In this document: positions 3,126-57,944 of the stretch, piece by piece | Position numbering within the stretch: position 1 is the stretch's first letter | Layout of the letters: the number at the start of each line of letters is the position of its first letter | From: Podarcis gaigeae | Taxonomy: Eukaryota | Assembly: GCA_964106915.2 (NCBI GenBank) | Contig: OZ066915.1 | DNA length: 64,000 bases | Strand: one strand, 5' to 3' | Made by a program: the position numbers and the translations under genes | The notes under the pieces: model-generated | Database searches by the model: none | What the model was told of the DNA's origin: nothing | The model's input: only the letters and a program-made list of their open reading frames with translations

Positions 3126-4425
3126 TGGACTTCTTTGGTTCCTGGTGATGGTGGTTGTAAGCGACCACTTAGTGATAGCAGCTGGGAAATACAGTGTGCC
3201 CATGCACCCCTCCATGGGACATAATGTTCAAATCACACTGTTATGAAATGCCCCTGGTCAAATTATTGCAGACTGGAAGAGTTAAAACAGAGCACTTTGA
3301 TTTTAAATATTAACATTTCTCCCATCCCGAAGGTTCTTCTGAAATTCTAAGATCCCTTGCTATTTTTTCTGCATTTTTGTTTTTGAAATCTTCATTAACG
3401 TTAGTATAAAAATAGCAATAAAAAGAAAACAGTTTGTATTTTTTAAAATGTATGAAGTCCAGGAAGGTTGTGAAGCTGTGTTGTATATTCAGTAGATTGC
3501 AATGGCACAAAACAAAACAACAAGGCTTTTTTTCCCCTGGGGTGGGGGGTCTTGGGCCAGTGCCCCTTTAATATTTCAGTTTCTCTGAGTATGCATGATA
3601 CAGATCAGAAAGAAAGAAGAATAGATATTGCATGAAATGGTAATAATATGATCCTTTGATCAAAGTAACATCCTTTTGAAAAGAAAAAGTTTTTAAAGAG
3701 TCCAAAGCCAGCAATATACCAGCTGCTCCCATGACCTTCAAACAGCCTAGTTTCAGTCCAGAAAACAGCACCATTGGCAGGATGCAATAACTAGAAGGGT
3801 GTTTACATTAGAAAAATGGGCTCATAACACAGCAAGTCAGCACTGTGATAATAATTACTTGTCAAATGTTTATCTGGATAGCTACTTCCTTAACAATTGT
3901 AAAACCTTGAAGATAGATGAATAGCCCCATTTGGCCTTGCTTGCTGAGGAGTGCTGATGCTGAAGGATGATGATACCATGCTTGCTAATACTATCGGAAA
4001 TGTTTTAGTTCTTCTACGGGGAGGTCTGGGTGGCAGAGCTTCAATGAGCCGCAGGTGGGAGAAGGATGTGGCTGCTAGTTGACTCTACAAGCTGACATAG
4101 ATGCTTTTATTGTGCTGCATTTTGAAAGATGTAGAGAGCTGGATGTTGTCCTGACAGGAATGAGATGGAATGGTATCCCGTGGGGCTGGATGTGCTGATT
4201 GACAGCAGTAGGGAGGAAACGATCACCCTTCCTCAAAGAATGCCCAAAGCAGTGCTTAATTCAAAGCATATATAAATTTAATAAATAAATAAACATAAAT
4301 AAAAAAGCATAGCAATTTGGTTCTATTTGCACAACCCTGTTAATTTTTTCTTACTTACACTTTGGAAGAACCAAAAGCCTTTTTTTCATAATCTAAACTT
4401 AGCATAGTTCTGTTGGACTGAATTA

Positions 4426-4667
4426 CAGTGGTACCTCAGGTTACATATGCTTCAGGTTACAGACGCTTCAGGTTACAGACTCCTCTAACCCAGAAATAGT
4501 ACCTCGGGTTAAGAACTTTGCTTCAGGATGAGAACAGAAATTGTGCTCCTGCGGCACAACGGCAGCGGGAGGCCCCATTAGCTAAAGTGGTGCTTCAGGT
4601 TAAGAACAATTTCAGGTTAAGAATGGACCTCTGGAACAAATTAAGTACTTAACCCAAGGTACCACTG
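4426..4667 (+). mobile_element. Tigger/pogo-like MITE, family A
   Basis: TA|CAGTGGTACCTCAGG...CCAAGGTACCACTG|TA; one extra GCTTCAGGTTACAGAC subterminal repeat. Confidence 0.9.
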
Positions 4668-6546
4668 TATATCTAGATTTTAAACATGTGCTTTAGCAGC
4701 TGTGCCTGATGCTCTATCACCTATGAAGTAGGAAGCATGAGTAAAGTCCAGTTTAGAAGTGTCTTCTCTAAGTAATCATTATGTGGGCTTCTGATGGCTC
4801 AGCTCTCCAAGTGGAGGAGCTCAGAATCTGAAAAGGTTCTGCACCCATGCCTTAGGTCCTTAGGGATACACTAGACAAGGGCACAACTCTCTTCCTTCCC
4901 TCACTTCAGAAGTCATCTAAAATGCATTTTTTTCCTGCTGTTCTTCAGTCCTACAAGTCCCATAGCTGCGTCTGGCCTTTACATAACCTTACCTGTTGAG
5001 AGAATGCCTGTGTTAAATACTGTTATAGTCCTATTAGACAAACAGGTGTGATTTCACTGCTATTTAGGAGCTTTCAGTAGAAGTGGATTTGGACCATATA
5101 TTGAGGCACAAACAGAACAACCAGAGCGATAATCAGGGGTCTTCTCTTGTCAAGGCTGTTCTCAGTCATTGTGTATACTCAACAGCAAACCAACAGGCCT
5201 GCAGTTTATTATTTCAGATGCTTCTGGGAGAAAACCAAGGGAGTAAAAGCAATCACTTGCCTCAAAGCGTGTAAAATGGCAAAATCATTAATTTCATTCA
5301 AATCACAGAAATACCATTCAAATCTTCTATGCTGATGGTGAAACAGCAAGACAAATCCTCCCATTTTTTGTTATTATTCTTTGCAAATGTATTTAATCCA
5401 GGTGGGAAATGACTAATTTGTGCCTTTCACTTTACGGTGTTAAATGAAGGGTTTATGTTTCATTCAAAATCATGCTTTATTGCTCACAAACAGAATACAG
5501 GTGGAGATTATTTTTTCCTCATGAAATGATATCTGTGCAGAGGGCTCTTACAGCAGCTGTGGATCTATGCTGCATTTATGGTATTTAAAAATTTAGAATA
5601 CTATTAGAATGTGCCTTACCCCCACTGCATCGATAAATGTGCAGAACAGTGATGTAAGACGAGAACATAGCTTTGACATTTATCCTAGCAAACTCAGAAT
5701 CTATCATTTCCTCTGTGGAAATCGCAAGAAACCTCTTACACAAGGTAAAGGCAAAAACAGGCCAGGGACTAGTGGTTCTCCTGTTATAATAATACGTTCC
5801 TTTCCAGGAGAGAAGAACACTGTGTGCACAAGGAGCAGACACTTTAAAAAAAAAACAAAAAACTTTGCTGTTTGTTTAACTATGAATCATTTCACTGGCA
5901 GTGAAATATTTGAATTCTACTTTGACTCTCAAAATATTTTAGTAGAAGTAAATATTTAGTGGCAGCTTTGCTCAATTTTTATTTATTTTTTTACAATTCT
6001 CTCATTTGCTTTTATACACAAAGGGTGCCATCCTGTCTACACTTGCATGGGAGTAAGACCCACTGAACTCAATAGGACTTACTTCTGAGAAGACATTTAT
6101 TTTGTTTTTTTATCAAACCCTGCCCTTTGTTGTAACCTGCCCTGGGGTCTACAAACAAAGAACACAAAATTATTAAATATTAAAAGGAGTTGAAATAAAC
6201 GTTCCTTGACCAGCAGTCTGTGGCCCAGGCATGTACTATATCAAAAGCATGTCAAAAGAACCACCTTTTCAGTTTCTATCTAAAGCTAAGCCGGGTTTGT
6301 GCCAACCAAATGTCCCTGGCAGATGTGTTCCATAACTGGGGTGCTATAACTGGGTCCTAAGCCATGTAATACAGCATTTTATAGACTAAAAGTAGTGTTA
6401 TGCCACAAATTTTTTTGCTCTGCTTTGTGCTTTTCCTCAATCGAATGAGACAAGGAATTGCATTCGAATTGATAATTCTATGGATATATATATATATATA
6501 TGCAGGTTTTGGTGTCCTCGGGTGTCTTCCCGTGTAAAAGTTGGGG

Positions 6547-6596
6547 TGTCTAGGCGACGTTTCGACGAGGTCTCACTCGTCATCTTCAGGCTGGTG
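6547..6596 (-). ncRNA. minimal type I hammerhead ribozyme motif (left arm of palindrome)
   Basis: Exact reverse complement of the motif at 6891-6940. Confidence 0.7.
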
Positions 6597-6890
6597 CTTT
6601 CGGCTTCTTGTTACTGGAACAGAGCGGGATCTCAATGTTTGAGTTCCTATAAATACTGTAGAGGGGGTGTGGTGTCTAGCCTCCAATGTTCTGGGCAGAG
6701 AGGAAGTTCCCAGGCTAGTGTGCCTTTTCTTCTTTTGTTAATTAAGGAACAAAAGAAGAAAAGGCACACTAGCCTGGGAACTTCCTCTCTGCCCAGAACA
6801 TTGGAGGCTAGACACCACACCCCCTCTACAGTATTTATAGGAACTCAAACATTGAGATCCCGCTCTGTTCCAGTAACAAGAAGCCGAAAG

Positions 6891-6940
6891 CACCAGCCTG
6901 AAGATGACGAGTGAGACCTCGTCGAAACGTCGCCTAGACA
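6891..6940 (+). ncRNA. minimal type I hammerhead ribozyme motif (right arm of palindrome)
   Basis: CTGAAGA (6898-6904), extra T, stem II GACGAG/CTCGTC with TGAGAC loop, GAAA (6924-6927), CG, TC; predicted cleavage after C6931. Stem III is the palindrome ACGT. Stem I is weak (2 clear bp). Confidence 0.7.
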
Positions 6941-7017
6941 CCCCAACTTTTACACGGGAAGACACCCGAGGACACCAAAACCTGCATTCCTGTACCCGTG
7001 AAAATCTACGAAAGCAA

Positions 7018-7018
<1 letters not shown>

Positions 7019-7079
<61 letters not shown>

Positions 7080-7101
7080 ATATACACACACACATATACA
7101 C
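7019..7101. repeat. compound (TA)n(CA)n microsatellite
   Basis: Seen directly; continues the (AT)n at 6484-6500 on the other side of the PLE. Confidence 0.95.
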
Positions 7102-8087
7102 TGAGTGAAATGCAGAATTTTGTTCTATTTACCTTACATTCAAGGTTGTCAGGGAGTGTTTGTGACCTTTCTTTCATTCTATAAACCTCCTTCTTGGCTG
7201 CTTGCATTTCCTGAGAAAATCCCAGGAAATCCTCAGCTGGGTTTTCACATAAGCACAGGAAAGCAGGAAGGCTGCCAACTGTGCTCCTAACAGTTGTTCT
7301 TTATTATTATTTTAATAAAGCCATTTTAAAGTGAAGCCTTTTCTTACTAGAAATCAGTGTGGGAAGATAGTTTATAGAGGTTAAAAGAAAATCAATCAGC
7401 ATACAAAATCAATTGGTATCCAGCATCCCATGCTTCAGTTAAAGCCCAGGGAAAGATACCATGAGGTAACCCCTCCCATTAAGCTTTTTCCATTCAGGGA
7501 TATTGGGCACCTGGGGAGGCTGCAGAATAGTGGGGTAATGTTTAATGGAAACATTAAACATTGCCCATGGCCACTTTGCAACAATAAAAGTCAGCTCAAC
7601 CCTGTACCCACCAAAATTCTGAAGAAATTCAAAGGAAATTTGAAAGCATCCCGAGACAGAGGGAGAAAATTTGAAGTCTTTTCCACAGGGGAATTGATGA
7701 TGATGATGTTGTTGATGATGATGGAGAAACTGGACAAGACGTTTCAATACAGCACTAACTATAAAACATTGAATTGGGCTCAACTGGCAGTGAGTGCAAA
7801 TGTTGTGGCACTGCATGTGAGCTCTTTGAAACTCTTTACCACTATATTCCCATTGTTTGTACTTTGAGTAAGCATGCATCAATAGGTCACATGTGTCAAT
7901 ATTATTTTCATTGATTTTAGCTTGGATAAAATATTGGAACAGGTGTGGAATCAACATAGGACATTATTTTTATATTTAGACTTTTCCAGCATTGGTCCAT
8001 TTTTTCAGAGTTGTGGCTATATAATAGCTTTGATTGTTGACTGGTTTTGCTACTCCGATTTCCTGCATACTTAAAGTTTTGGCCAAT

Positions 8088-12525: not shown

Positions 12526-13076
12526 CCGTATTTTTCGCTCTATAGGACGCACTTTTCCTCCTCCAAAAATTAAGGGAAAATGTATGTGCGTCTTACAGGC
12601 TCAGCAGTGAATAGTGAAGGAAATGCGAATGCAGGCTCCTTGGCTTCAGCGATAGCAATGCGAAGCCTCCGAAGCACAGAGGGAGCGCTCCCTCCACGCT
12701 CCGGAGGCTTCGCGTTGCTTTCGCTGAAGCCTGGAGAATCGTTCTCCAGGCTTCAGGGATAGACTCTCCTGGCTTCAGCAAAAGGAACCTGAAGCCTCCG
12801 GAGCGCAGCGGGAGGTCCCGCGGTGCTCCGAAGGCTTTGGGTTGCTTTCGCTGAAGCCAGGAGTGCAAGACTCTCCTGGCTTCAGCAGAGAGGGAGAGCT
12901 GTGCAGCGCCCCTTCAGCGAAGTGGGAGGAGAAATTGGAAGGGGCTCCGTTTCTCCTGCCGCTTCGCTGAAGGGGCGCTAGGCAGAGAAGGGGAGATTTT
13001 TTTTCCTCTTGTTCTCCCCCCTATAAAACAAGGTGCATCCTATGGTTGGGTACGTCCTATAGAGCGAAAAATACGG
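12526..13076. mobile_element. Tc2/pogo-like MITE (551 bp) with multi-hairpin GC-rich interior
   Basis: TIRs CCGTATTTTTCGCTCTATAGGACG...CGTCCTATAGAGCGAAAAATACGG; TA at 12524-12525 and 13077-13078. Confidence 0.9.
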
Positions 13077-15640: not shown

Positions 15641-16552
15641 AAGCTTGCTTTCCTCTCACCACCTCTCCCCCCATTTTGTGAAGTATTAGAATCTGAACCT
15701 GGGCAAGAACTGTCTCAACTTTTAATACTTACAAAATTTAAGAAACTTTGGACAAAATTGCTAAACCTTTTTTTAAAGAAAAAAAACCCTACTGCTACTA
15801 CTTATTACTATTTTGCTAAATAATTATTCATAATAGGTTGTATCCATTGTTAGTTCTATGCAGAGTAGACCCATTTCAATTAATGGGCATGACTAATCTC
15901 AGCCAATGAATTTCAATGGATATACACTGCATAGGACTTACCAGTAGTTGGAGTCATCATGCCAAATAGAAAATCAAGTTGCTATAGTTATATCCATTGT
16001 ACAATGAAACTGGCAGCTTTAGCTTTAGGTGTGACCTTAGCCTTGTGCAGATTACATATTCAGAGACAAAGAAAGTGTGCCCTTTGGCCTGCCCTCCAAC
16101 CTTCACATATTAATTCACCCTTGTGACCAACTCAGTACAGCATGCAGACTCAGAAGGCTACATAAACACAGGGAACTGGGATGAATAGTACTGGTGGCAC
16201 AACCCTGACCCTTCCTTTAGTTGTTTTCTCTGGATGTGTTGTCTGCCCAAGGCTACTGAACCAATGGCATGTGCTGCTGAAGCAAAACAGTGAAGAAGCT
16301 TCTAGGATCAACAAAAGCCATGGGATGCAGTTCAAGCAGGCTGAAAGGAACCGTGCTTCACACCTGATGGAGTGGCACATACTTATTTAAATCTTTGTTT
16401 TACAGCACCAGTCATGAAAATTCATAGAGGGGAAAAACAATAAAAACAACATTCAGTAAACCAAAACAAATTACATCAATAAATCAGCGAAAGCAACAGT
16501 CCCAGTAAACGGCCAATAAAATAAGCACAACTACCCTGAAAGTACCGGTAAA

Positions 16553-16903
16553 GGTAAAGGTACCCCTGCCCGTACGGGCCAGTCGTGTCCGACTCTAGGG
16601 TTGTGCGCTCATCTCACTTAAGAGGCCGGGGGCCAGCACTGTCCGGAGACACTTCCGGGTCACGTGGCCAGCGTGATGAAGCTGCCCTGGCGAGCCAGCA
16701 CCAGCGCTGCACACGGAAACAGCGTTTACCTTCCCACTATAAAGCGGTACCTATTTATCTACTTGCACTTAGGGGTGCTTTCGAACTGCTAGGTGGGCAG
16801 GAGCTGGGACCGAATGGTGGGAGCTCACCCCGCCGCGGGGATTCGAACCGCCGACCATACGATCGGCGAGTCCTAGGCACTGAGGTTTTACCCACAGCGC
16901 CAC
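16553..16903 (-). mobile_element. Sauria (Squam1) SINE
   Basis: Minus-strand tRNA-like head GGGTGGCGCTGTGGG...GGTTCGAATCCC, (ACCTTT)n tail; TSD CCCTGA[A/C]AGTACCGGTAAA on both sides. Confidence 0.92.
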
Positions 16904-17249
16904 CCCTGACAGTACCGGTAAATAGTGTTAAAAATGAAAGTTCTTCTGAAAAGTGACAGCCTTCAACTGCCAAAAAAAAAAAACTAGCAGGGACAAGACT
17001 AAATGAATCTCTTTTGGAGGATAATTCTAGAGCATTGGGGCTGATCCTTGTAGACTCCCCATAAAATGTTGCTAAGTTGATCCCAGAGAACACAAAACAA
17101 AGAAGAGGTAAGAAAAACATGCTTGCTTCCTAATGAGGTTTTCACAGCCATAACCACTGCAAGCTGACTCTGAATGTTTATATTGTTTTTATCAATCTGC
17201 AATGCCATGGGTACATCCTTGCAATGAGTGTGAAACTAATATGGAGAAG

Positions 17250-17378
17250 TTACAGATAGGTAGCCGTGTTGGTCTGCCATAGTCAAAACAAAAAAAATTC
17301 CTTCCAGTAGCACCTTAAAGACCAACTAAGTTAGTTCTTGGTATGAGCTTTCGTGTGCATGCACACTTCTTCAGATAC
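17250..17378 (-). mobile_element. Penelope-like element pseudo-LTR 3' fragment (different family from 6500-7018)
   Basis: Minus strand: hammerhead core followed by GTTGGTCTTTAAGGTGCTAC...CAGACCAACACGGCTACC, which I recognise as a reptile PLE terminus; flanked by ATA[T/C]GGAGAAG repeats. Confidence 0.8.
17341..17378 (-). ncRNA. minimal type I hammerhead ribozyme motif
   Basis: Minus strand GTAT-CTGAAGA-A-GTGTG-CATG-CACAC-GAAA-GC-TC-ATAC: stem I GTAT/ATAC, stem II 5 bp, palindromic stem III AGCT, intact core. Confidence 0.8.
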
Positions 17379-20300
17379 GGAGAAGAACTTCTTCAGATAT
17401 GGAGAAGGTTTGGGTGGGAGAAACCTAAGTTAAAATCCTCATCTCTGCCAAATTGCATGTTATAGCAGATCTTGAGCTGTAGCCATATATGGCTGGCCAA
17501 TGCCATGTTCTTCACTTTTGCATTTCAGTGTAGGTTTGCTTACTTATACTGTTACTACATCATCTCAACATTAATTTACCAGCCTCTCATTGGCAGTAGC
17601 CAACAAACTGGAGAACTGGGGCAGGGCAATGCATGATGTGACAATGGGAAGACTTGGGGCAAATGTTGGGTTCATTTGTCCCTGTTTGCTGTAATATGCT
17701 CACTGAGATAACTTGGGGCCCAACCCTACATCCCATAGTCATCAAGAAGTAAAAGATGCATCTTAAGTGTTTTAAAAGTGGGTGCGAAGTAAATTGTTTA
17801 GTGTGAGTAATTGCACTTATCAATTGGTATTTCCCTAACTAACCTTTGCTTGTTTCTCCTTACATTCATATAGCCATTATTTCCTCGTATTTTTGGCATG
17901 CTGCTAGCTGGCTTCTTTTTGTTGTTGTTTGCTTTGGGATTGCAAAAAAGCCTAAGATTCAACAGCACAGGCTTTTCTCACATGCTTTCTTCCCAGATCC
18001 ATTAACCACTCCCCCAGCACAGTTTGACAAACAGTAATAGGAAATCCAGCTGTGCAGGTGGGAAAGGAGGAAAGACAAAAGAACTCTGGGGAAATGGACA
18101 GGAGAAGACATAGTTGTTGAGTCTCTCCCTTAATCAATAAATGTAAAGATATAGCAACAATTTCCAGGTTGTAACTGACAACCCTAGTTACACTTTCTGA
18201 ACTACAGCTAATTAGGTCTTGGTCCAATAAATCATTTTAAAACATACATTTTTGCACAATGTGTCTCTCTGTTTCATGTCCACATAGTAAATTATTATAG
18301 GTATGAAAATGTTACAGGCATTAACATTGAAAGACCTGTTTTCCAGCAATCCTACATGAATTCTATTTACTACCAAGAACAGCCATAACTTGAACACTAT
18401 CTCTTTAGAGAGACGTACAGCAAGAACCCTTCTATGGGTGTTTAAAATCTAGTCTTTTTAAACCTGTGAGATAATATGAATGCTGCATAGGTGATAACAT
18501 CCGCAGGCAGGCAGAAATAAGATAATAAAAAATATTTTTTTCTGTCTGGGTTCTGAATGCTGGCAGGTCATACTTTTGACTCAAAGCACATACGCTTCTG
18601 GAACTGAGCAAGACAGAGAGATAAAGTTAAAACGAACACACATCTCTGTCAAGCTGAAAAGACAAAATGTTCATAATAGAAGCCACTCTAAAGCTATTTT
18701 GTTTCTGACGTATTAGTGGAAAAGGCATTAATACAATGCCTTTTCCACTTAAAAGATTTGCAATGTATTTTTTTTCCTTTTTAAAACCCTGTTATTAATA
18801 AATTGAAGTTGCTTATCAGACCATTTCTAACAGCTAGAAGAAAGTGAAATCTTGAGAAAAGCCAGTTTAGCTGATAACCATATTTTATACTTTATTTTAA
18901 ATCTGAAGGTTTTTAGGGTTGAGAGCTGTTTTTCTGCCACCAAGTACTAAGTATAGATTTGGTGGTGGTGGTGGTTTTTTACCTTTTCACTTCAAAATGA
19001 TCTGATTTGTATATTGAATATTATATGAACTTGTGCAAGAGGGTTGTGCAGTATTTCTGCTGAGAAGTTCTGGGTGAAATGACTGGTGGGTTGAGTGTGG
19101 CAATTAATACCTCACATTTGCGTTTGCTATATCTTAACATAACCTAAGCCCAACTTATGTTGTCTGTTGGTCTTTTGGTCTAAAAGCCCAATAGGGAATG
19201 CAATCCAGGCTGTTAGAGTATTTGGCAGGCTTCTATGTGATACAAAAGTTAAAACAACGATATATTTGTAGATGATCAATTCAGACTCACATCATAAAAC
19301 TAGCACCTGCTATGCAAATTGTTCCCCTTGGGAAGTTGGCGCTCTTATTTTTCCTCTTCCATAGCCAGTCCCCATTCAGCAACATTTCCCTCGCAGTTTC
19401 AACTATAGAGCATGCCATAATAATATCCATCCTTGATTATTCTTTGGCATCTACGGAGCCGCATTAGCAATCACATTGATGGATTAAGTGGAACACATGA
19501 ATGAAGAAGCAGACAATATTAACTAATTGCAGTTGTTGAGTAGATGGGAAAGAGATGGATGTGGCGTGGTAGGACTCAATCGATCATCAGCTTGAAGGAA
19601 CAAGTAGAAGGTTATGACCCCTCATAGTTGGACTTTTTGAAACAAAAGCAATGTTGAACAGCTCAGGGACTAAATGCATCTTTCAACTGGTTTCTAGTTT
19701 TAGGGCTCTTCCAGACAAGTTGCTCATTGAGCAATCATTCTGCTTTGGTTGCTTAGAGGCAATATGACATTGCTGTCATCCCACACTTTCCTGTTCATTT
19801 TCTGTCACTTTTCTTACCACAGAAATGTTGTTGTATGCAAGAGGGCCAGATTTGCTTTAATTGCACAACTGAAATTTGCTGGCAGAGTACTGAATATCAT
19901 CTACAAAATAGTATAGTCCGAAAGTAGCCTTAGACTATGTTTGGAAGTTAGCACTTTCACAGCATGCATTCAACCAAATAGCAACAAACATGTTGCTTTA
20001 AAAAAAACAAAAACCATGCAAAGCATGACACTGCTCAGTAGCCATCTAACCAGGGCATTTCGTTAGAGTAGAAGATGAGCTTGAATGCCACCTTTTGAAA
20101 AGTTAATTAGCAACTTAATAATCTGCAACCACAGCAACTATTTTTTTAAAAACCAACCCATAAGATGGAGTTGTTGACTTCTTCTAGCAAGATTCTGTAC
20201 AGAAAAACATATGTGCAAGTTACACAAGGGGACTGTGTGTGGGTTGCACATATGGCTTGCAAACTTTTCTCCCCCTTAATGCTCCTGCTCCTGTGATCTC

Positions 20301-21611: not shown

Positions 21612-23715
21612 GCAAGAGAGGAGAGGACACAAACTATTTTTTTGAGATCTTTGGTGCCCCAGCAGTATAGGCTTTGTCTATATTCATCCTCAACAGATTA
21701 TGACTACCTATCCCTGGCTTTTTTTTTGATAGCTCAACTTGCTCCTGGATTCAGCAACAAAGTCAACACCATCTTCTGTCACTTGGGTTAGAAAAAGCAA
21801 CCAGCTACATTAAAGGGGCTTCTAGATCATAACTTGCAAAATTTGTCAAGTCTGACATATTGGGGGTGTTTTTTTCCACCACTGTCCTTTTGTCTAGAAC
21901 CTAAAAGAGATCATTGATTTGCTAGGTATTTAGCAATTTTGAATATCCCTAGGTAACAGAAGAACATTTCCATGTGCTGGTTCAGTTCTTTGCTATCAGC
22001 ATTTAGGGTCAATTTGCCAGGCTGCCCTTGGCACTTGACAGTTTGTCCCTTGCAAAAACAGCTCAATTGAAACAATAGCTCATGTCCTCCTATACTGTAA
22101 CTTTTATAGAAAGATACCAATCTGAGCTAAAGATTTTAGAAGGAATGACTATAGCAGGCACCAAATTGCCAATAGACATTATTTCTATTTATAACTCTTT
22201 CTGATTATTCATGGAGTTTCTTATACTCTCATGTTAAAAGGTGCATGCATGTATTGTCTTGATAACTGTATGTACTGTATTTGATGTTATGATTTGTAGA
22301 CCAGATATACTGAAAGCGATCATAGAAAAGCACAACCTAAAACAATATAACATTTAGTAACCTTAATAATACTTAACTAGCAAAACTATGCAAAATATAA
22401 ATGAATCTTTAAAATAGAGTTGGCGTTACCCTTGACAATTATTTAAAAGGCTTCTATCAGGAATGCCAGTCCTATTTTTAAGGAGTTTATATTTAATTTT
22501 TAGATATAAATATAATATTTTTAAACAGACATTTATATGGCACTTTGTTCATTGAATGCCCTTTAAATTTAATTTCATAAATCATGCAGTGGTTGATTTT
22601 TCTTATTTCTCTTGGGCAGGAAGCCAGCTTCAGATCAATGGTTTCAAATCCTGGGTATTGCTAAATTCTGCTTGGCACCAAGACATTGTAGATATGTTTG
22701 TATGCTAAGAAGGGATACAATTTTTTTTAGTTGACTATGATAATTTGATGGACTGTAACATAGCAAATGTACAAAACTACTCAAACAGAGGAATCTTAGT
22801 ATTGTGCAACTGCAACAGATTGGAGGGTGGGCACAATGTCAGTGGACATTGGACTACCAAGTGTCAAATTTTATTTTATCCATGGTGTCATTCACTCCTG
22901 TATGAAAAAGGAGGCCATAGTTCTCATACCATTGGTGATTCAGGGGTAGCAGAGGCTTTCAATATCACAATATAGAATCTAAAATCCAACAAGTTAAAAA
23001 AGACCCTAGATCTGAAACCCCATAATATAACAGTTAAAGTACTGAAGAGAAGAAGTGAGAACATCAATGACACAGTCAAGATAGCCATTCATTTTTGAAG
23101 TTTCAGATATCCAGAGTGGTACATTGCAGGCTTTTCAATAGCTTTAGAAACGTTCATAATCTAAAAATGGGCACATTGCAAAGCACAAGGAAATGTGAAC
23201 ATTGTAGTAGACAAAGTCATAGGAGTGACCTCAGCTGTGCATTGCCCCATTTTAGAATATTTCCTATGAGATTAAAAAATAAAATCAGCTTAACAATATA
23301 TTCCTTAAATAGCAGGCCACTGGAAACAGAAATATAAAATCATAGTATCTAGCTCACTCATCAACTGAATGAGCTTCTTCGTACATACCAACTTTAATAT
23401 TAAGCTAGTTGTCAACATTGGTTATACTGAATGGGGTTTTCTTCTTGTTACTTTTCATTTTAGAAGGATCCCTAAAATAGTTTAAAAGCATATAAAGCTA
23501 CATTGTAAGGCTGTCCTCCTAGCTGAGTATTAGCAGCCCTGACTGGCAACTGCAATCCAGGGTGTCAGGCAAGAGTCTTTTCTCCCCCTACCTGATGATG
23601 CCAGAATTCAAATATGGTGCTTTCTGCATGCATGTGCTCGAATAACATGTTAGGGAGAATGCTAGACAAAAAATGCTTCCACTTAAAATTGTAGCTCTCT
23701 ATGTATAATCTGTTT

Positions 23716-24070
23716 GGGACGCGGGTGGCGCTGTGGGTTAAACCACAGAGCCTAGGACTTGCCAATCAGAAGGTTGGTGGTTCGAATCCCCGTGACGGGG
23801 TGAGCTCCCATTGCTCGGTCCCTGCTCCTGCCAACCTAGCAGTTCAAAAGCATGTCAAAGTGCAAGTAGATAAATAGGTACCGCTCTGGCGGGAAGGTAA
23901 ACGGCATTTCCGTGCGCTGCTCTGGTTCACCAGAAGCGGCTTAGTCATGCTGGCCACATGACCCGGAAGCTGTACGCCGGCTCCCCCGGCCAGTAAAGCT
24001 AGATGAGTGCCGCAGCCCCAGAGTCAGTCACGACTGGACCTAATGGTCAGGGGGTCCCTTTACCTTTACC
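23716..24070 (+). mobile_element. Sauria (Squam1) SINE, full length
   Basis: GGGACGCGGGTGGCGCTGTGGG head, box B GGTTCGAATCCC, CCTTTACCTTTACC tail; TSD CTATG[T/C]ATAATCT. Confidence 0.93.
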
Positions 24071-27530: not shown

Positions 27531-27892
27531 AGGTAAAGGTAAAGGTACCCCTGCCCGTACGGGCCAGTCTTGACAGACTCTGGGGTTGTGCGCCCATCTC
27601 ACTCAAGAGGCCAGGGGCCAGCGCTGTCCGGAGACACTTCCGGGTCACGTGGCCAGCGTGACATCGCTGCTCTGGCGAGCCAGAGCTGCACACGGAAACG
27701 CCGTTTACCTTCCCGCTGGTAAGCGGTCCCTATTTATCTACTTGCACCCGGAGGTGCTTTCGAACTGCTAGGTTGGCAGGCGCTGGGACCGAGCAGCGGG
27801 AGCGCACCCCGCCGCAGGGATTCGAACCGCCGACCTTTCGATCGGCAAGTCCTAGGCGCTGAGGCTTTAACCCACAGCGCCACCTGTGTCCC
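27531..27892 (-). mobile_element. Sauria (Squam1) SINE, full length
   Basis: Perfect 13-bp TSD CACCTTGTACATA (27518-27530, 27893-27905); (AAAGGT)n tail; CpG-rich, so young. Confidence 0.95.
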
Positions 27893-33800: not shown

Positions 33801-34208
33801 AGGGGAATTCCAGTAGTTGCAGCTTTGCTAGCCCCAGGGGTGGATTTAGGGCTGTATGAACAGTGCACACGCACTGGGAACTGTCTCAAAGCCAGATAAG
33901 TGACTCACTGGGCTTTGAGAAGGAGGCGTGAGGCTCTCACAGGGTCCTAGAGTCCTCCTCCTTCCAAAAGCCAAGTTAGTGTTTTCATGCCTTTGGGAAG
34001 GCAGCACAAGGATGGGGGGAGTGCGCCACTGCTTACCCAGCATGGCAGATGCATTTAGTACCTGTAGCAGTTTAGTGTTAGACAACTATTTGTATCTCTT
34101 TCTGCCAAAGTCACAACAGCCAAGTAAAGCTGCTTCTGTTCCTAGACTGTACAAAAACCACACCTATAAAGCAGACCTGAGAAGCAATGAACTGGTAGAA
34201 TGCTCATA

Positions 34209-34447
34209 CAGTGGTACCTCAGGTTACGAACTTAATTCGTTCCGGAGGTCTGTTCTTAACCCAAAACCGTTCTTAACCTGAGGCGCGCTTTCGCTAGTGG
34301 GGCCTCCTGCTGCCGCTGCCGCCGCCGCACAATTTCTATTCTCATCCTCGGGCAAAGTTCTCAACCCAAGGTACTACTTCTGGGTTAGCGGAATTTGTAA
34401 CCTGAAGTGTTTGTAACCCAAAGCATTTGTAACCTGAGGTGCCACTG
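34209..34447 (-). mobile_element. Tigger/pogo-like MITE, family A (inverted relative to 1208 copy)
   Basis: TA|CAGTGGTACCTCAGG...CCTGAGGTGCCACTG|TA; interior is the reverse complement of family A. Confidence 0.9.
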
Positions 34448-37400
34448 TATTTATTAATTATAATAGAAGATCTTCAACCTGATTAGGCAAATTCAGAAAG
34501 CATGGGCAGGTGAGGTTCTGTGGAAATCTGGTAGGTGTCCTGCTCTGGCTCTAAAACACACAAGCAGAAGCTCTTTCTTATAAGGAAGGAAGGAATATTT
34601 ACTCAGGCAGGTAACAGTGCAGCTTAGCAAAGACACATTGCTCAGGAATCATGGTTTAGGAGCTCAGGAGCAGGGCAAGAAGTTCTGAACTGGGAGAAAA
34701 TGACAAAAAAAATCCTGACAAGTTTCCACACTCCATCTGCCAAGCTTTTAATGATGAGTGCTCAGTCACCTTGTGGGAATATCAGGATTGCTAAGATGTA
34801 CACATGCTCATAAACCTCAACCTTTACTGGCTGGAGCAACACAACGGTACGTAAGGGGTGTGACTACATCCACAGAACTTTTCTCAAGTTAGTTGCAACC
34901 CACCACCAGTGTGGATGGGAAAAACCACACTCACTCCCTAATAACAGTGACATGTGACCAAAGGTGCAGCAGTCAGTCAGTTTCAGGTTAAAAACATCAA
35001 AGAGCAACTGTACCACTATAGAAGAAGTACAGAAAGACCTAAGTCTTCCTAAGTCCCTCAATGACACCAAGCTTTTTCCCTAAACATGATGTGCCTGCGT
35101 TTTTATTCTCTCCGCTCAGAACCCCCTATCCAATCACAAGGTTCTTGGAATTCCGATACCTCATGGGACTATAACTAAGGACCAATAAGTTTAAATGGAA
35201 TGGCCACTGAATGATCTATCACACTTTGCCCTTTTTGGTTTCTACTGACCTCTATCAAAATTGAGTTCCATAACTGTTCTAATGGAAAATCTGAAAAGAT
35301 TCAGCCTCCTCTTTAGTAATTGTATCAGCCTAGCTGTTTCTTGCCAAACTGGCAACTGAAGAACCCCTATACAACATATCTCCTTTATTGAGGTAACTTA
35401 TATGCTAACCAGTTTTTATATCATAATATTGTAACATTGACTTTTCTGCTCAACATGTCACAGCATTCCACTTCACTAGGCATAGGGAATAAAATTTTCA
35501 GTTTAATGTTTATTCCTGATGGATCTCCACAATGGGTTTAAGGTGGATCTATTAGATCTAAGAGTCCATGAAAGTAAGCGGAACTTCATTATCTTAAAAT
35601 ATCCCAAATATAAGACCATTTGCCAGTTCAAATGCTTATTGTTTGTAGCAAACCTGCTTTATTTCCTCTTTGCATGCTTAGTATTTGTTTGCTTTAGTAT
35701 GTAATAAAGATTTAAATTGCCCTTTTCTGAGGTCCCAGATGTCGTTCTGATTTTGTTGTTAAGATTGGCGTTAAGGTTGAAATTGCCCAATATTTGAGAT
35801 CAAGCTTGATCAAGGTAGCTGAAACTAAAGAGGAATCTCACTGGGATGATTAAGTCATGCTAGGCTTCCTTCTGTCAACTCTAGTTGCTCCTGTCTTAAT
35901 GTAATAATCTAGTGTATGCTTCACATGTCATCCCCCTTCTCTTCAGCTTTCCTGGGCGGCTGATTCACAAAGATCAAAGACAGAGCACACTATTAATCCA
36001 TTGAAAGATGGTTGAGGAAGTGCTGACACAGACAATAATAAACTATGCATTGTAATGTTTGACACTGTAAACAAACATCACCATCATCAGTGTAGCTGCT
36101 ATAGCTTCCAAATAAATCTTGCAGCATTCCTTCAAACTGTTTTTCACATCTGGATTATCCTGCTTATGTAGCATGATGAGTGTTAATGGCACTCAGTAAC
36201 CCAAATTCTCATTTGAATTGGACCAAATTATTGCTTTTGTTGTAATTGGAGCAGCTCTATCCCCCCTTTAGCATCTCACCAGTTTTTACCAGAAGCATGG
36301 AGAAGACAAGTTATTTTTCAAGTCATCCTGGAGAGAAATGCCAGCCTCCCCCATGGCTACCAAACTGAGACCCAATAAGAGGCAGCTAACAGTGACCCAA
36401 AAGAGGTCCAGCTAGGATGCAAAGACTAACAACAGGAAATGCAGGTCCATCCATTCAATTTGAAAGGTTCTACAGCATTATTGAAAATCATTTCACCATA
36501 TCTATATCTCTAGATCTATCGATCGATCAATCAGTCAATCAATAGAAGATAGATAGATAGATAGATGATACATATAGATCTACTGAAGTAATAAGCAGTA
36601 ATATCCAATAAAACAAAGGGTTACTTGAGGATGGGATACGTTGGAAGAAGAAAAATATTACTGGTGAATGAACCAAACTATAAGCTTCTAAATCCTAATG
36701 TGGTAGTTAAATGGAGAGGATGGGGTAGCCCAGAATTATTAGTGTCCAAAACTTGGCTAAAATGCTTTGTAGCTGTGAGAAGATCTGTAGTTGTGATTTT
36801 AAAAAATATTTTACTTCCATGTTCGAAAGTGCCTCAAACGTATGCACCTGGTCATATTAGAGGGCTATTATGTGAATTCTCGTCATTGCATAGTTTTCAT
36901 TGTTTCCTTTCCACTTCCTTTTCACCTGGCTTTTGAGTAATTGCTAAAATTTGGAAGGATTTTCACCCAAGGAACCAGTAAGATTCAGTGACATTCTTCC
37001 AATGTGCTTCCAGAAATTTAAAGAAGTAGCTCACTTTCTCCCTCAGATACTCAGCTTAGATGTGAAAAATTCGGCAAATCCCACAGCCAATTACAATAAT
37101 GGAACTCTTCCCTATTTCCAGATATATATTTTAAACAAAAACTGATATTTTTGAAAATCAGAAACATTGTTAGAGATGCCTGTGCTTTGTTTGGCATTTA
37201 ATAAGTGTTTCATTTTATATGCTGAAGAGGGTCTCCCTACTCTTACACTCCACATGCAGTCTCTGGCAATGGAATTTCTGTTTCTGTTGTGACTAATGAT
37301 CCAAATAGTAAAAACTGACTGAGTGCAGACTTTCCCAGACATTTAGCATGATCTAGATAAAGAATTCTACATACAGAAGCAGGCTTCTTCTTATGCATCT

Positions 37401-39109: not shown

Positions 39110-39243
39110 CAGGCATACGCAAATTCCGGGCCTCTAAATGTTTGGGACTACAATTCCCATCATCCCTGACCACTGGTCCTGTTAGCTAGGGATGATGGGA
39201 ATTGTAGTCCCAAACATCTAGGGCCAGAGTTTGCCTATGCCTG
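39110..39243. mobile_element. hAT-type palindromic MITE
   Basis: TIRs CAGGCATA.GCAAA...TTTGC.TATGCCTG; internal hairpin ATGTTTGGGACTACAATTCCCATCATCCCT/AGGGATGATGGGAATTGTAGTCCCAAACAT; degenerate 8-bp TSD TCGTAAGA/TCATATGA. Confidence 0.85.
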
Positions 39244-41687: not shown

Positions 41688-41989
41688 CAGAAATAATTGT
41701 GGGGTGTGGGAGGGGAGGGGTGAAAGCCCCATTAGTGGGAGTCCTTGCACTGACTTCCACTAGTAGGGCTCAGTGGTTGAATTCTGCCCTCTGCTTCCAG
41801 TTCTTGAACTAGTTACTAATCTATAAATAATCTATAAATAAATACTAATCAGAAATAATTGTGGGGTGTGGGAGGGGAGGGGTGAAAGCCCCATTAGTGG
41901 GAGTCCTTGCACTGACTTCCACTAGTAGGGCTCAGTGGTTGAATTCTGCCCTCTGCTTCCAGTTCTTGAACTAGTTACTAATCTATAAA
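41688..41989. repeat. perfect 140-bp direct tandem duplication with 22-bp filler
   Basis: 41688-41827 equals 41850-41989. Confidence 0.95.
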
Positions 41990-43818: not shown

Positions 43819-46257
43819 TAAAGTCTTGGCGTGAATTTTGTCTTTTTGTTGTTACAGTCTGCCTCGTTCTGGAATTTCCCCCTAGTTATAGATGTTCCTA
43901 CAGCTGCAGCAACATTCCATGCAAACCAGCTGGAAGAGATAAATCTCAACACACACACTTTGTGACTTGCAAACTCACTATTGCCTTTCTGGGTAACTAC
44001 AGACTCATTTGATTCAGATTCAGCAGGGAGAAGCTGATCCTAGATGCTACTGGTGCAGGAAAAGTGGTCCACACAGCATTGTTACTTTCAGATAACAATC
44101 CATGCTGCTTGGCTGTACTTTCATAGCTTACTTGTAAATAAAAGCTTTACAGATCTTTTTTCTATTTGTAACTAAAGCTGCCCTAACCTCTGAATAGCTG
44201 TTATTCCTCTCTGACAAAGGGGAGCTGCATGCAGGTTGCTTACTCCAGCACTTGATCTCTCTGCCATGGCAGACGTGAACTCAGTATGAGGCCGGTATGA
44301 GGAAGGTCATAAAAGTGTGTTCTTGCTTCTCCACCTGTTTATCTGATGCAAACAAATGTATTTGTAGGAGCAAATTATTCACAGGGTTTGGAGGAATATG
44401 CAGAACAAAGCTCTCTTCCCACAGCAGCAGAACAATTCTCTCTTAAGAATATGTTCTTTAGAGCATCTTTGAGAGCCTAATCCAGGAAAGATGACATGAG
44501 GACTGTAACATACATATGTAGCATGCACATCATCAAGCACTCTTGGGACTAGGTAGAAAAGCACTTAGGCTTGATTAAGCAGAGGAAAGGAATCTGTGCA
44601 TTTGTGAGCCACTTAGCCTTACCTTTTCTTCCTATCAAGATAAAGCTCATTACCTCCACAGCATGCTGCCTCTCCATAGGTTTGGAATGATACTAGATAA
44701 CTCCAGCAGCACAGCCAAGTGTTTTACATCACAAGCAAGTGCTGAAGCGGCATTTTCTGGCTCCTGAAGTTAGCAAATCTAAAAAGAAACACCAATAGGT
44801 CTCCCCAAGGGCACCTACTGCCATTTCACACCAAAAGTAGCAATCTTTAAAAAATCAATAGGGTTTTCTTAAACACTGGAACAAAAATTGAATAGAAATA
44901 TCCTTCAAGTTATTATTAATTTTATCCTTCAGATGTTTTATACTGCTGAACTGGTATTGCTGATGTCTCCTGTAGCCAGATCTCTTTTTTGGGGGGGGGG
45001 CAAGGAATTCAAGTGGGTTTTATAAAAGGGTTCTTAGCCTACATAGCAGCATTAAACTGAACAACGAAGCCAACGTCAACAGATTTTAAGCAAGTCTTCC
45101 TTTAATTTATGGGTACATACTGATCCCTTTGGCGTGATTACTGTTGTAAATTAGATGAAGTGGAGAAAGACAATTTGATGTTGGTAATTCAAGTGTAAGC
45201 TAAGTTTTCCTATTGTCATGTGCACTGTGTGCTTTGCAGTCTTGGGCTGGACATTGGCTGGCTTAGCAACTCATCAGAAGAAGGTAGGATTCCATTCTCA
45301 TTTTTCATTAGTTGGGTAATGGAATGCAATTTGGCACAGCTGGCAGCTTCTGCTAAAGAAACATCCTGTATTAAATGAGAATGGTGTCAAAAGGCCAGAA
45401 AGAACTGCAGTGCTGTAACAGCTCTCTGCAGAGAAACTTGCATGTTGTATTTTTCATATATTAATATTTATTACTGACTTCACATTACTCTAGTACCCAA
45501 ATACTCAGCAAAAAAATCACAGAGAGCTTTTTCCTCTCTTAACATCCCAGGAGCAAAGGGAGCAAAACATATGAGCATCACCAGAATAATTAAGAGGTTA
45601 AAGGGAGGCCCTTTCAAGAGAATGAGGGCATTCCTCCTTTAATTTGATCATTCCTCAGGAACACCTATATTTATTTCCAACTGAATGATTCTGCTTGGTG
45701 AACGAATATTGGTTTAAACAATTAATTGGGTTGGTATGCCAGCTATGCTTACCAAAGCCACAGTTCCAGCAGTAACAGTATCAGGGCTTTAAAAGATAAT
45801 TAGGTTTTTTTAGCTATTGATCCCACCCTGGGCCTGCCAAGCTCTGCCTTTGACTGTCATATACCTCCAGATTTAAACCTGCCTGCAGCTAGGAATGGAT
45901 GAATCTGTCAATCCGGTAAGCCTTGCAGCCATGATGCATTCCCTTATGGCCTGCTCAAATTGTCCTCAAAACCATTGCTCAGATCTGCCCCAGGAGACCA
46001 ACAATGTGCAAAGTTGCAGCAGTTTGCTGTGGAATTGCAAAGCAACAAGGGTGGCAATGAGATAGCATGCCATTTCTATGAGAACACACACACACACACC
46101 CGGTTACGGGATGCTCTCCTCAAGGAAGTTTACCTGGTGCTCGCTCTGTCATTTTTCAGCAGCAGGCAAAAATATTTTTGTTTCCCCAAACATTTGGGCT
46201 GTGTTAATGGTCCAGCTTCTGCCATCAGTTGGGTAAGGGTGGCTATTCTGTGTTTTA

Positions 46258-46615
46258 AAAGGTAAAGGTACCCCTGCCCGTACGGGCCAGTCTTGCCAGA
46301 CTCTAGGGTTGTGTGCTCATCTCACTCTAGAGGCCGGGAGCCAGCGCTGTCTGCAGACACTTCCGGGTCACGTGGCCAGAGTGACAAGCTGCATCTGGCG
46401 AGCCAGCGCAGCACACGGAATGCCGTTTACCTTCCCGCTGGTAAGCGGTCCCTATTTATCTACTTGCACCAGGAGGTGCTTTCAAACTGCTAGGTTGGCA
46501 GGCGCTGGGACCGAACGACGGGAGCGCACCACGCCACAGGGATTCGAACCGCCGACCATGCAATCAGCAAGTCCTAGGCGCTGAGGTTTTACCCACAGCG
46601 CCACCTGCATCCCGA
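46258..46615 (-). mobile_element. Sauria (Squam1) SINE, full length
   Basis: Perfect 13-bp TSD ATTCTGTGTTTTA (46245-46257, 46616-46628); closely similar to 27531-27892. Confidence 0.95.
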
Positions 46616-49215
46616 ATTCTGTGTTTTAGGTGATTTCAAATGAAAACATTTAGTATACGTTTATTGTTTTTAACAGATATTTTATTCTGTAGTATTCTGT
46701 TTTACTTCTCATGTAAATCACGACAGGACTCCTTTTGATTGTGTTAACTAAGCATAATAAACTAAAGTGATGAAGGTGACTCTACTACTTACCTTCTGGT
46801 TACTGAAATAGCTAGTAAGGGAAAGAAGTTTTTGGACCTATGTTCTACCTTAGTTCATTATTCATCTATGGAGAGTGATTTCCTCTGGATATTTTGAAGA
46901 TTCCTGCTGTGTAAAGAGGAACTGACCTTTTGCCATCCACTTCAAGCTTCTCACAGAATCAGAGCTTGCAGTATTGCATGCTGGTGCCCTTGGCTAGGGC
47001 ACAGACAAAGAGATCTTTGAGCAGACCTAAGCAATTTTCATCTCTCTCTCCCCACTGAAACAATAGGAAGAGAAGAGACAGGAGACTACTGCGATTATAC
47101 AGCTTGAAGGTAGGCAGGCCATCCAGAACTGCTTTAGTTGTTAATTTCATGCCTGTAGGCAGCAGCATTTTCTAAGTTGTTCTTGGTTGATTTAACCAGC
47201 TTGGATAGCACTCGTTGGCCACAAGCCTGCACCTTTGATGTGTGTGTTCTTTTTCTGACCAAGGGAATATTCACAATGAGTCCTCATTTGAAGCAAGATC
47301 CATCAAACATGTGAAACAGTATTTGAACTGAAACATAGCTCTCCTTCCAAGTTTGCACTCGTCTCAATTTCGGTACGCAGTTTGCCAGTCTATATTTACA
47401 AAAACGCGTACATCGGAGGAAACTGCTTGCAGAAAAATGTGTACATTAATCAGAACGGTATCTAAAATGTGTTTCTTAACAACAACAAAATGCAGTAAAA
47501 TTATTGTTGGCATCCATCTGTCTTGAAAGACAATGAAAGAGTACACTTTTGCAGGTGAAGTCAAACTGTTGGAAGGTTGCAGCGTCTGGGGCAGATGAAG
47601 GCTGCTGTTGTTTGCTGTTTGCAAAAAAAAATTGTGTACATAATTCAAAACCACATCTTAAACCACTGAGAACTGAATTTGAGATCCAAAAAAATGAGAA
47701 ACTGGGATAACTGAAATTGACATATGCTTCTATCACTAGTCATCACCATAGGAAAAAAATATATTCCTACACACGTGGGATCTGAGCTTCAGTGATGGGC
47801 ACATATTCCTTTAATACATCTGTCTAAAACAGCACTCTTACTCTGTTCTCTTCTCTAAAACTCATTTTCTTCCTTTTTGTGTGCAGATAAATCAGAATCC
47901 TTCCACAGATAACTTGTTCAGCTCATATTACACCCACTTCACCAGCCATAAAAGAAAATGCCTTCTGTCAATATTTGTGCGTGTGTTTTAAATACGTAGA
48001 CTTTTATGTAAATGAGTAAGTTTTAAGGCAATGTTGTAACTACATCATACATTCTGCCTATCTACAGCTCTCGTCCTTTTCATTACTTTGCTGAAAGTGC
48101 AGAGCATAATGCAAAAATAATTAAAAGAATCTCCTTAAATATCATCATGCAAATGTAGCTTGGCAGCAGCAGCGTTTTCTGTAAATGACGGAAATTACTG
48201 CAGAAAGCACAGGCATTGTTGCACGCAGTGATGGGGTTATTACTGAGACAAAATTGTCGCACACAGAAATGTTGTTCATTTTCATCTTATGTCTCTCTGA
48301 AATGTCTTGGAGCTGTACTTATTCTTGGACCTCAATTTAAAACTCAGGTTTACCAAAGGAAAAGGCTACATCTCATCTGTGGAATTTATTTCTACATTGA
48401 CCTGTGCTATTGACCCTGCCAAATGGGTATCACAAATCCACTTTAACACTTTAGTTTTAGTGGAGCCGAGTGCTTGCTCTTGGTCTGGGGCAAAAGGTTG
48501 AAGGACTTTGTACAGTTCTTGAAAAGAGGTGTCCAAGCTGTTTTAAAAGGTTCTTTTATAGTTAAAGAAATGATCCTTCCTCATTTTCAAAGTCCTGCTA
48601 ACGGTGCAGGTTGTAAGCACATCTGTAACAACAAAAACAACCGTCGTAGTCAGAGCCACAGTAGTAGTCATAGGAAAAAAGAAGCAGCAGCAAATATATA
48701 CTAGTTTCCCTGTGGATTTCAAATGCTGCACATACATTATCTCATACCAACCCACTATTGCATACAAAAGAGACAGGGGGTTGAGAAACTGAGGTTCTTG
48801 CCAAAGGCAATCTAGTAAGTTTGTGGTTCATGTGCGGTTTAAAGCACGGACTTCCTGGCTCACAGCCACTGCAAATGCTGTTTGGGTTATCAGCTTTTAA
48901 AAGGAGGGGAGGTGGGAGTAGGGAGGTATATTTGAGATTTCCACAGCACTACATGAAAAGACTGAGGTCTGCACTAATTTGTTTCTCTGTACCTGAACTC
49001 TACCTACAAAAGTTCATGGTAGCTCCCAAACAAGAGCCTCAGCATATACTAAAAGATAAAATAAAAGTAACTTTTCACAGCAGACCAAGAGTTAAAACAG
49101 CAACAATAAAAATCGGGTGTTCAGTTTTTAAAAACACGGTTAGAAAGCACTCCCAAGACAGCATTGCTGACCAGGGGGTGAAGTCAGAGGGGGTGAAGGA
49201 GGAAAGGCCTTAGTA

Positions 49216-57563: not shown

Positions 57564-57944
57564 GGGCACGGGTGGAGCTGTGCTCTAAACCACTGAGCCT
57601 CTTGGGCTTGCCAATCAGAAGGTTGGCAGTTTAAATCCCGCGACGGGTGAGCTCTGGTTGCTTTGTCCCAGCTCCTGCCAACCTAGCAGTTTGAAAGCAC
57701 GCCAGTGCAAGTAGATAAATAGGTACCGCTGTAGTGGGAAGGTAAACGGCATTTCCATGCACTTTGGTTTGCATCACGGTGTTCTGTTGTGCCAGAAGCT
57801 GTTTAGTCATGCTGGCCACGTGACTTAGAAAGCTGTCTGTGGACAAACACCGGCTCCCTCAGCCTGAAAGCGAGATGAGCACCACAACCCCATAGTCATC
57901 TTTGACTGGACTTAACCGTCCAGGGGGCATTTACCTTTTACCTT
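57564..57944 (+). mobile_element. Sauria (Squam1) SINE, older/longer subfamily
   Basis: Head GGGTGGAGCTGTG, TTTACCTTTTACCTTT tail, TSD TAGACCCGG. Confidence 0.9.

Follow-up and report, generated by a model that had tools for sequence, protein, structure and literature searches.

What is the perfect palindrome that separates two (AT)n tracts in this lizard DNA, and how might it have been made? In the 64-kb stretch analysed here (64,000 nt from Podarcis gaigeae, "the window"), nucleotides 6748-6987 are the exact reverse complement of nucleotides 6500-6739 (240/240 nt), with no outward extension of the pairing, and a 31-nt tail (6988-7018) follows the right arm only; in both respects an earlier note on this DNA, made from the sequence letters, had described the structure correctly. 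The spacer between the arms is 8 nt long (AATTAAGG, 6740-6747). The centre is occupied by an 8-nt palindrome, TTAATTAA (6738-6745), which lies 2 nt off the symmetry axis of the arms; equivalently, the junction can be viewed as a palindrome centred on TTAA/TTAA, with the left copy 4 nt short. The arm pair is the longest among the 94 inverted pairs of at least 25 nt in the window and the sole pair with 100% identity among the 25 listed of these 94. The runner-up perfect stem in the window with a spacer of at most 50 nt measures 30 nt. No further arm copy was found in the window by blastn, the remaining matches being at most 19 nt long (E ≥0.6). Repeats in the window that are presumably Sauria-SINE-like, together with the squamate relatives named below, fit a squamate host. 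A search for a host gene among the 150 longest of the 262 stop-to-stop frames of at least 60 aa gave 0 Pfam families, a scope in which shorter exons would be missed. The features discussed below are collected in the table.

Table. Features of the palindromic insertion and its borders (window positions; signed numbers count from the ATG)
Feature	Position	Strand	Remarks
Left (AT)9 target tract	6484-6501		Final AT shared with the outer end of the left arm
Left arm, inverted 5'-truncated copy (pseudo-LTR)	6500-6739	element sense on -	Ends at +84 from ATG, without tail
First 28 codons of the PLE ORF, left copy	6500-6583	-	tblastn with P0002 and P0003
Hammerhead motif, left copy (predicted)	6554-6591	-	Core starts at 6589 on -; mirror of 6896-6933
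Head-to-head junction	6738-6749		TTAATTAA 6738-6745; spacer 6740-6747; 2-nt AA/TT microhomology closing an 8-nt loop
Probable C-terminal tail of PLE ORF	6741-6914	+	57 open codons, PVTRSR; stop TGA 6912-6914 inside the ribozyme
Right arm, 5'-truncated copy (pseudo-LTR)	6748-6987	+	-156 to +84 from ATG
TATA-like TATAAATA, candidate, antisense to element	6832-6839	-	Mirror copy 6648-6655 on +
Hammerhead motif, right copy (predicted)	6896-6933	+	Core CUGAAGA at 6898; predicted cut after 6931
First 38 codons of a Penelope/Poseidon-type ORF	6904-7017	+	A of ATG is ribozyme position A9
Tail, +85 to +115, encoding residues 29-38	6988-7018	+	Sequence; protein register to PAc
Right (AT)10 tract, then (AC)n	7018-7094		(AT)10 is 7018-7037; (AC)n up to 7094

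The identity of the insertion is supported by its coding end. From the ATG at 6904 the frame is open through 38 codons, up to the end of the tail. Comparison of these 38 residues with 1.84 billion proteins (phmmer) gave two matches, P0001 and P0002. P0002 is identical at 26 of the 38 positions (68%) from residue 1 onwards (E 1e-4); the better-scoring P0001 (E 1.4e-7) is a tandem-repeat protein with 35% identity and was set aside as spurious. Searching with P0002 returned one longer relative among 397 candidates, the Crotalus adamanteus protein P0003 (NXF25_010538; 65%), to which the window peptide is 61% identical. With P0003 as query, 457 of 3000 candidates matched, and 118 of the 120 matches listed contain PF00078 (reverse transcriptase, RT). 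The closest to P0003 among the matches listed is P0021 of Podarcis muralis (LOC144326219; 113/137 identical, 82%), which has an RVT_1 domain (E 4e-16) and a GIY-YIG domain (E 1e-3; 19.8 bits against a Pfam cut-off of 22.6). P0021 is a gene model that starts downstream of the N-terminus, and the connection from the window to P0021 runs via P0003. By this chain of ORF-start homology (P0002/P0003 to P0021), the parent ORF would encode a Penelope-like element (PLE) type RT with a C-terminal GIY-YIG endonuclease. The link to an RT/GIY-YIG element that had been looked for is present along this route, in agreement with the PLE origin and the inverted pseudo-LTR (pLTR) with a one-sided tail that the earlier note proposed. 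Pfam gave nothing useful on P0002 and P0003, a word-index protein search with 40 aa gave no candidate, and a scan of a prokaryotic genome collection gave 0 matches. The Atlas clusters holding P0003 are eukaryotic and carry PF28514/DUF8422, without a function. Two weak ribosomal-protein matches from a PDB search with P0003 were disregarded. When 122 proteins were compared with the window by tblastn (E ≤0.05), seven rows were obtained, four in the arms and three weak ones elsewhere (E 0.025-0.031), and no RT or endonuclease remnant was detected in the window. The insertion had been called ORF-less; this holds for the RT and the endonuclease, but the ORF start survives in the arms over 28 and 38 codons, and its last ~57 codons are probably present too.

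The CX2-5CxxC linker between RT and endonuclease is described as a feature of Neptune elements (PMC8557442). None of the 99 parsable proteins among the 120 listed relatives (0/99), a set without a Neptune protein, has it within 90 aa on the N-terminal side of the endonuclease; an Anolis Poseidon protein is among the relatives of P0003. The absence of the linker points to the Penelope/Poseidon clade rather than Neptune. The first residues of the Anolis protein P0017 are, by eye, those of the published RNA of PAc (Poseidon_Ac of Anolis carolinensis). Membership of the Poseidon_Ac family was considered and rejected: P0017 is 40% identical to P0003 and sits on a separate branch, and it gives no tblastn match to the window at E 0.05. 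In a quick tree (44 of 121 proteins) the Crotalus and Podarcis proteins form a pair (SH-aLRT 98) away from PAc. The locus points to another Poseidon-type lineage of squamates besides PAc, one that appears recently active. The source of the palindrome is almost certainly a squamate PLE of the Penelope/Poseidon clade, represented here by a heavily 5'-truncated insertion with a head-to-head inverted copy.

Each arm contains one minimal type I hammerhead motif overlapping an ATG. The motif consists of CUGAAGA, an extra nucleotide before G10.1, a 6-bp stem II opened by a G-C pair, GAAA, a palindromic ACGU replacing stem III, and a GUC cleavage triplet (6898-6931 on the + strand, 6589-6556 on the - strand). 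Stem I is only 2 bp long; a helix I of 2 bp is reported for Drosophila virilis (PMC4209133). The features given there for minimal PLE hammerheads, namely the core, the extra nucleotide after A9, the G10.1-C11.1 pair and the palindromic 15.2-16.2 positions, are all found in the motif of each arm. A strict minimal-hammerhead descriptor, drawn up after the motif had been seen, has three matches in the window, two of which are the arms, and 0 matches in 200 simulated 64-kb sequences. Rfam gave no hammerhead match in 6300-7200, in a single arm, where there was 1 chance match to another family, or in the whole window, and folding of the ribozyme region produces stem II only, with z-scores of 0.02 to -1.09. 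The two cores are on opposite strands, 309 nt apart. We regard the motifs as predicted ribozymes with a predicted cut after 6931 (+28 from the ATG). The PAc ribozyme is described as cleaving only with protein present (PMC11167929).

Two classes of hairpin-bearing sequence were also considered. A MITE or fold-back DNA transposon was rejected in view of the one-sided 31-nt extension, the 8-nt interior and the retroelement ORF start and ribozyme in the arms. A microRNA precursor was discarded as well: the 53 Rfam matches in 6300-7200 are hairpin-driven and all below the gathering scores, and the whole window has 0 matches at gathering score.

Upstream of the ribozyme the right arm may carry the other end of the ORF. 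The frame 6741-6911 is open (shuffle P 0.057), and it contains a motif, picked after inspection, with a shuffle P of 0.018. Among the 120 listed relatives 64 tails could be parsed, and 13 of them have the motif TR[SA][RQKMN], with 1.8 expected. It occurs in 10 of the 12 proteins of P0021's clade, there as the TRS[RQKM] type, and in 1 of 14 parsed tails (of 31) in the other tree rows. Several tails of P0021's clade begin W-K-x-L-I/L-K, and the L-I-K at 6738-6746 fits. Against the tail of Podarcis P0021 the frame has no significant alignment (p 0.89). Local alignment of the upstream arm with ORF tails is unconvincing as a whole: it reaches p 0.015 for P0004, and p ≤0.05 is obtained with 4 of 55 tails for the candidate frame as compared to 1 and 2 for other frames. 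With moderate confidence, we take 6741-6914 to be the last ~57 codons of the ORF. If this is right, the arms would be 5'-truncated copies that end just after the endonuclease domain, and TTAATTAA might be native to the element.

The outer ends of the insert lie in AT repeats, (AT)9 on the left and (AT)10 on the right, which bears out the (TA)n insertion suggested earlier. They are the only two tracts with at least 5 AT units in the 64 kb, and they adjoin the two ends of the insert. Each junction is ambiguous by about 2 nt, as the AT tracts overlap the left arm by its first 2 nt and the tail by its last nt. The first AT of the right tract can also be read as part of the Ile codon with which the homologues continue. 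AT is common to insert and tract at either outer junction (GC/AT left, CAA/AT right; n=1), a priming-like mark that is only suggestive in a single insertion. With (AT)n on both sides, target site duplications of 0 to about 16-18 nt all look alike. By protein register (E33 here, E34 in P0017) the tail end at +115 corresponds to PAc +117/118. Reverse transcription of PAc is reported to start in the region +111-118, and the 30-40-nt PLE tail to lie between two RT start sites (PMC11167929); elsewhere the tail is ascribed to endonuclease-mediated resolution (PMC8557442). One-sided 30-40-bp tails together with inverted 5'-truncated copies constitute the standard PLE scheme (PMC8557442, PMC8969392).

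The 0 differences in 240 nt limit the divergence of the arms to about 1.25% or less (95% upper bound). The neutral rate is near 2e-9 per site per year. At this rate the insertion would be up to roughly 3 million years old. The earlier description of the insertion as very young is bounded only loosely in this way, and polishing or arm-to-arm conversion could hide or erase further differences. The CpG observed/expected ratio is 0.70 over arm and tail, compared with a median of 0.15, and this value is reached by 3.7% of 1258 windows; by part it is 1.21 in the ribozyme and ORF start and 0.24 upstream. Both frames are intact. A recent insertion is plausible. Palindromes with long identical arms and short spacers are described as the least stable class (PMC7999016).

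How the palindrome arose is a matter of reconstruction. With modest confidence, we favour a single retrotransposition event in which target-primed cDNA synthesis is followed by snap-back at the 3' end of the cDNA. An autonomous copy elsewhere would supply the GIY-YIG endonuclease that nicks the (TA)n tract, and the nick would prime reverse transcription at the internal ORF start site at +115, with a stop ~280 nt on, near -166. Pairing of AA with TT over 2 nt next to TTAATTAA would let the cDNA 3' end fold back around an 8-nt loop and be extended on its own strand. At the tail boundary (+84) the second arm would then be cleaved or captured, and AT would connect it with the opposite side of the tract. 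This would yield a dead-on-arrival head-to-head pair of pseudo-LTRs which lacks RT and endonuclease and keeps the ORF ends. The inner ends at most 8 nt apart and the identical arms support the snap-back. Inverted junctions of PLEs are reported to be head-to-head and palindromic and are read as self-priming (PMC3846280), the size of PLE inverted repeats differs between copies (PMC2377424), and fold-back junctions in yeast have spacers of 3-12 nt (PMC7999016). No 3' hairpin formed on its own in the modelled cDNA end, so the snap-back would rest on 2 bp and need the enzyme. Snap-back by itself gives no reason for the left arm to end at the tail boundary; a separate resolution at +84 is required. 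Fold-back during reverse transcription, as the earlier note had it, is the most likely mechanism, which we infer from one insertion (n=1).

Priming by both nicked target strands would directly predict both outer ends and better explains the one at +84, where an RT start site is located by the PAc data, which also show both target strands to be extended. The cDNAs would start at +115 and +84, both would stop where the RNA 5' end lies, near -160/-166, and their 3' ends would be joined via AA/TT, or via TTAATTAA followed by a 4-nt deletion. PAc, for which there is a dimer model, is reported to cleave both strands and to extend both, and its tail lies between two RT start sites (PMC11167929); both outer ends here resemble priming junctions on AT. 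The promoter of Drosophila Penelope is internal to the pLTR (PMC2377424), so that a short run-off ending at the 5' end of the RNA is plausible. However, the two runs must end 4-10 nt apart, that is, at a presumed fixed RNA end, and both the size-variable inverted repeats (PMC2377424) and the palindromic junctions (PMC3846280) fit snap-back better; we regard such dual priming as the main rival, possible though doubtful. The palindrome might also be a programmed product of the Crotalus/Podarcis PLE lineage rather than a random truncation, with reverse transcription proceeding from the two tail-bounding sites close to the mRNA 5' end on both nicked strands to a fixed end at a native TTAATTAA and the cDNAs being sealed. 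This we consider unlikely. In that case TTAATTAA would be the kind of ATT site preferred by the PAc endonuclease. Programmed formation would predict that (TA)n tracts across the genome contain numerous palindromes of one stereotyped form, ~240 bp in size and carrying the ribozyme. These would serve as a genomic read-out of PLE inverted-repeat and tail formation and would repeatedly give rise to dsRNA and fragile sites. Alternatively, the self-priming may have used an antisense RNA template, a proposal of Arkhipova et al. (2013), with transcription driven by an antisense pLTR promoter. The head-to-head polarity and the palindromic junction are as in that proposal (PMC3846280), and each arm has an antisense TATAAATA; this 8-mer occurs 7 times on the + strand of the window and is weak as a signal, and the PAc template in vitro is sense (PMC11167929), which leaves the antisense template improbable.

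As a second option, the earlier note named membership of a non-autonomous hairpin family mobilised in trans. The cis parts tied to PLE mobility (ribozyme and tail) are present, pLTRs of Adineta mobilised a host gene in trans (PMC3846280), and for retrozymes an origin as non-autonomous derivatives of PLEs has been argued (10.64898/2026.07.22.740005). Against this, the RNA of the palindrome would hide both ribozyme and arm in its own 240-bp stem: in the folded read-through RNA (about -525 kcal/mol) 34 of 34 ribozyme positions are paired. The insert moreover ends at ORF nt +115, and by analogy with PAc, which requires the first 172 nt in vitro (PMC11167929), the missing ORF nt 116-172 would be needed. 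Retrozymes are tandem direct repeats, unlike a palindrome (10.64898/2026.07.22.740005), and the single copy in 64 kb is a further, weak argument. We therefore judge a family of this kind very improbable. Since any transcript reading through the locus would form a 240-bp stem with the ribozyme enclosed in it, the locus is more likely to act as a source of dsRNA, and to be potentially fragile, than to be mobile. A fold-back point shared among copies, which the note would have read as the mark of a family, could also be explained by a fixed RNA 5' end or a native palindrome. Least probable of all is an artefact of assembly or of a folded-back read. A fold-back read or polishing would give arms of 100% identity, and inverted PLE structures are known to trouble assemblies (PMC8557442). 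However, the 5-kb left and 5-kb right flanks share no similarity at E 0.01, so the fold-back stops short of the flanking DNA; the window contains 0 N, and the arms end at element-specific positions with the canonical 31-nt asymmetry.

As a single insertion the palindrome carries little weight. Fragments of PLEs are common in lizards and often polymorphic, and 16,208 Penelope insertions are tabulated for green anole populations (PMC7561263). Its architecture is already in print for PLEs (inverted pLTRs, 30-40-nt tails, palindromic junctions, opposite-strand hammerhead pairs) and is ordinary for them. The value of the locus is that of an unusually clean minimal example in which every junction can be read. 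The origin of the tandem and inverted structures of PLEs and their microsatellite bias are stated to be open (PMC8557442), and the later steps of PLE insertion are 'yet to be validated' (PMC11167929). In the literature searched, which consisted mostly of papers available without subscription, there was no report of the Crotalus/Podarcis PLE lineage or of a census of PLE inversion junctions. Such a census in one genome would tell snap-back from dual priming.

Several known systems share parts of this arrangement. The non-LTR retrozymes (10.64898/2026.07.22.740005) are likewise short, PLE-derived and devoid of RT coding, with a type I hammerhead. As described there, they are head-to-tail tandem units with at least 2 ribozymes on the same strand, whereas here there is one ribozyme per strand in inverted orientation. 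Assignment to the non-LTR retrozymes was rejected, as the window has no tandem or direct arm repeat and the ribozymes are on opposite strands. Schistosoma has pairs of minimal hammerheads on opposite strands 100-700 bp apart (PMC4209133), a range that includes the 309 nt seen here. Tailed structures with inverted pLTRs, such as Pen2a_Av of Adineta (PMC3846280), resemble the window in their head-to-head pLTRs (about 200-250 nt), the tail on a single copy (31 bp in Adineta), the first ORF codons inside the pLTR and the palindrome at the junction. In the general scheme of PLEs with an inverted pLTR (PMC8557442) the difference lies in the main copy, which here is also pLTR-sized, so that the whole insert is a near-perfect palindrome. 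The lineage of Crotalus P0003 and Podarcis P0021, compared by protein, shares the N-terminus and the tail motif. With PAc (P0017; PMC11167929) there are both differences and likenesses. The two ATG frames differ by 1 nt in their offset from the core end (KRR vs ETS). In PAc there is a 126-nt UTR, whereas in the window the tail of the ORF probably extends into the ribozyme, and the window copy is without RT or endonuclease. In both, the hammerhead lies over the start codon and has the GAAACGUC core end; the PAc ORF is reported to begin at stem II (PMC11167929). The cut is 26 nt after the ATG in PAc and predicted at +28 here, both targets are AT-rich, and a TAATTAA 7-mer lies upstream in both elements (PMC11167929). 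The tail ends at the equivalent codon in both elements, with E33-N-L-R in the window and E34-S-L-R in P0017.

The second minimal hammerhead motif in the window has a stem II of 6 bp, a palindromic AGCU and a stem I of 4 bp, and is unrelated to the one in the arms of the Penelope-like element (PLE) palindrome at 6500-7018. It is enclosed in a fragment of about 150 nt, the 5' part of which is duplicated in tandem (22 nt; 17365-17407). The fragment is probably a solo pseudo-LTR of a PLE family other than that of the palindrome; reptile repeats resembling it are, we assume, Neptune-like.

Repeats in the window outside the palindrome
Feature	Coordinates	Strand	Details
Fragment with the second minimal hammerhead motif	17255-17407	-	core start 17374
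Interspersed repeat, ~350 nt, CpG-rich (n=5)	16547-16905, 23713-23962, 27532-27872, 46255-46616, 57645-57824
Repeat, ~240 nt (n=4)	1195-1435, 2548-2788, 4413-4670, 34206-34452		one of four inverted
Tandem duplication, 162-nt period	41688-41989		140 nt, 100% identity
Array, ~129-nt units, GC- and CpG-rich	12636-12979
Inverted repeat, 34 nt, spacer 20 nt	39134-39221		complementarity 97%

The copies of the CpG-rich repeat, which we take to be Sauria-SINE-like, are 78-92% identical. Those of the ~240-nt repeat (79-89% identity) start with TACAGTGGTACCT and presumably resemble a non-autonomous DNA transposon inserted at TA. The duplication with a 162-nt period is either very recent or an assembly slip. 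The array units are built from nested short inverted repeats and possibly represent a degenerate MITE or a satellite-like repeat; the 34-nt inverted repeat is labelled a MITE-like remnant.

In a quick, unrooted tree of 44 of 121 proteins (P0003, P0021, P0022, P0024, P0011 and P0017 being concerned here), the lineage of Crotalus (P0003) and Podarcis (P0021) and that of Poseidon_Ac from Anolis (P0017) lie on separate branches. Poseidon_Ac clusters with beetle proteins and further records, the Crotalus/Podarcis pair with other records. This separation hints that the two lineages may have entered squamates independently.

The C-terminus of P0006, one of the PLE-related proteins compared with the window, reads …KRRAETSS… and its N-terminus MAPKGEPKRR…; the two look like two frames across one ribozyme region. 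An ORF end would then overlap an ORF start in P0006, just as we infer for the window element.
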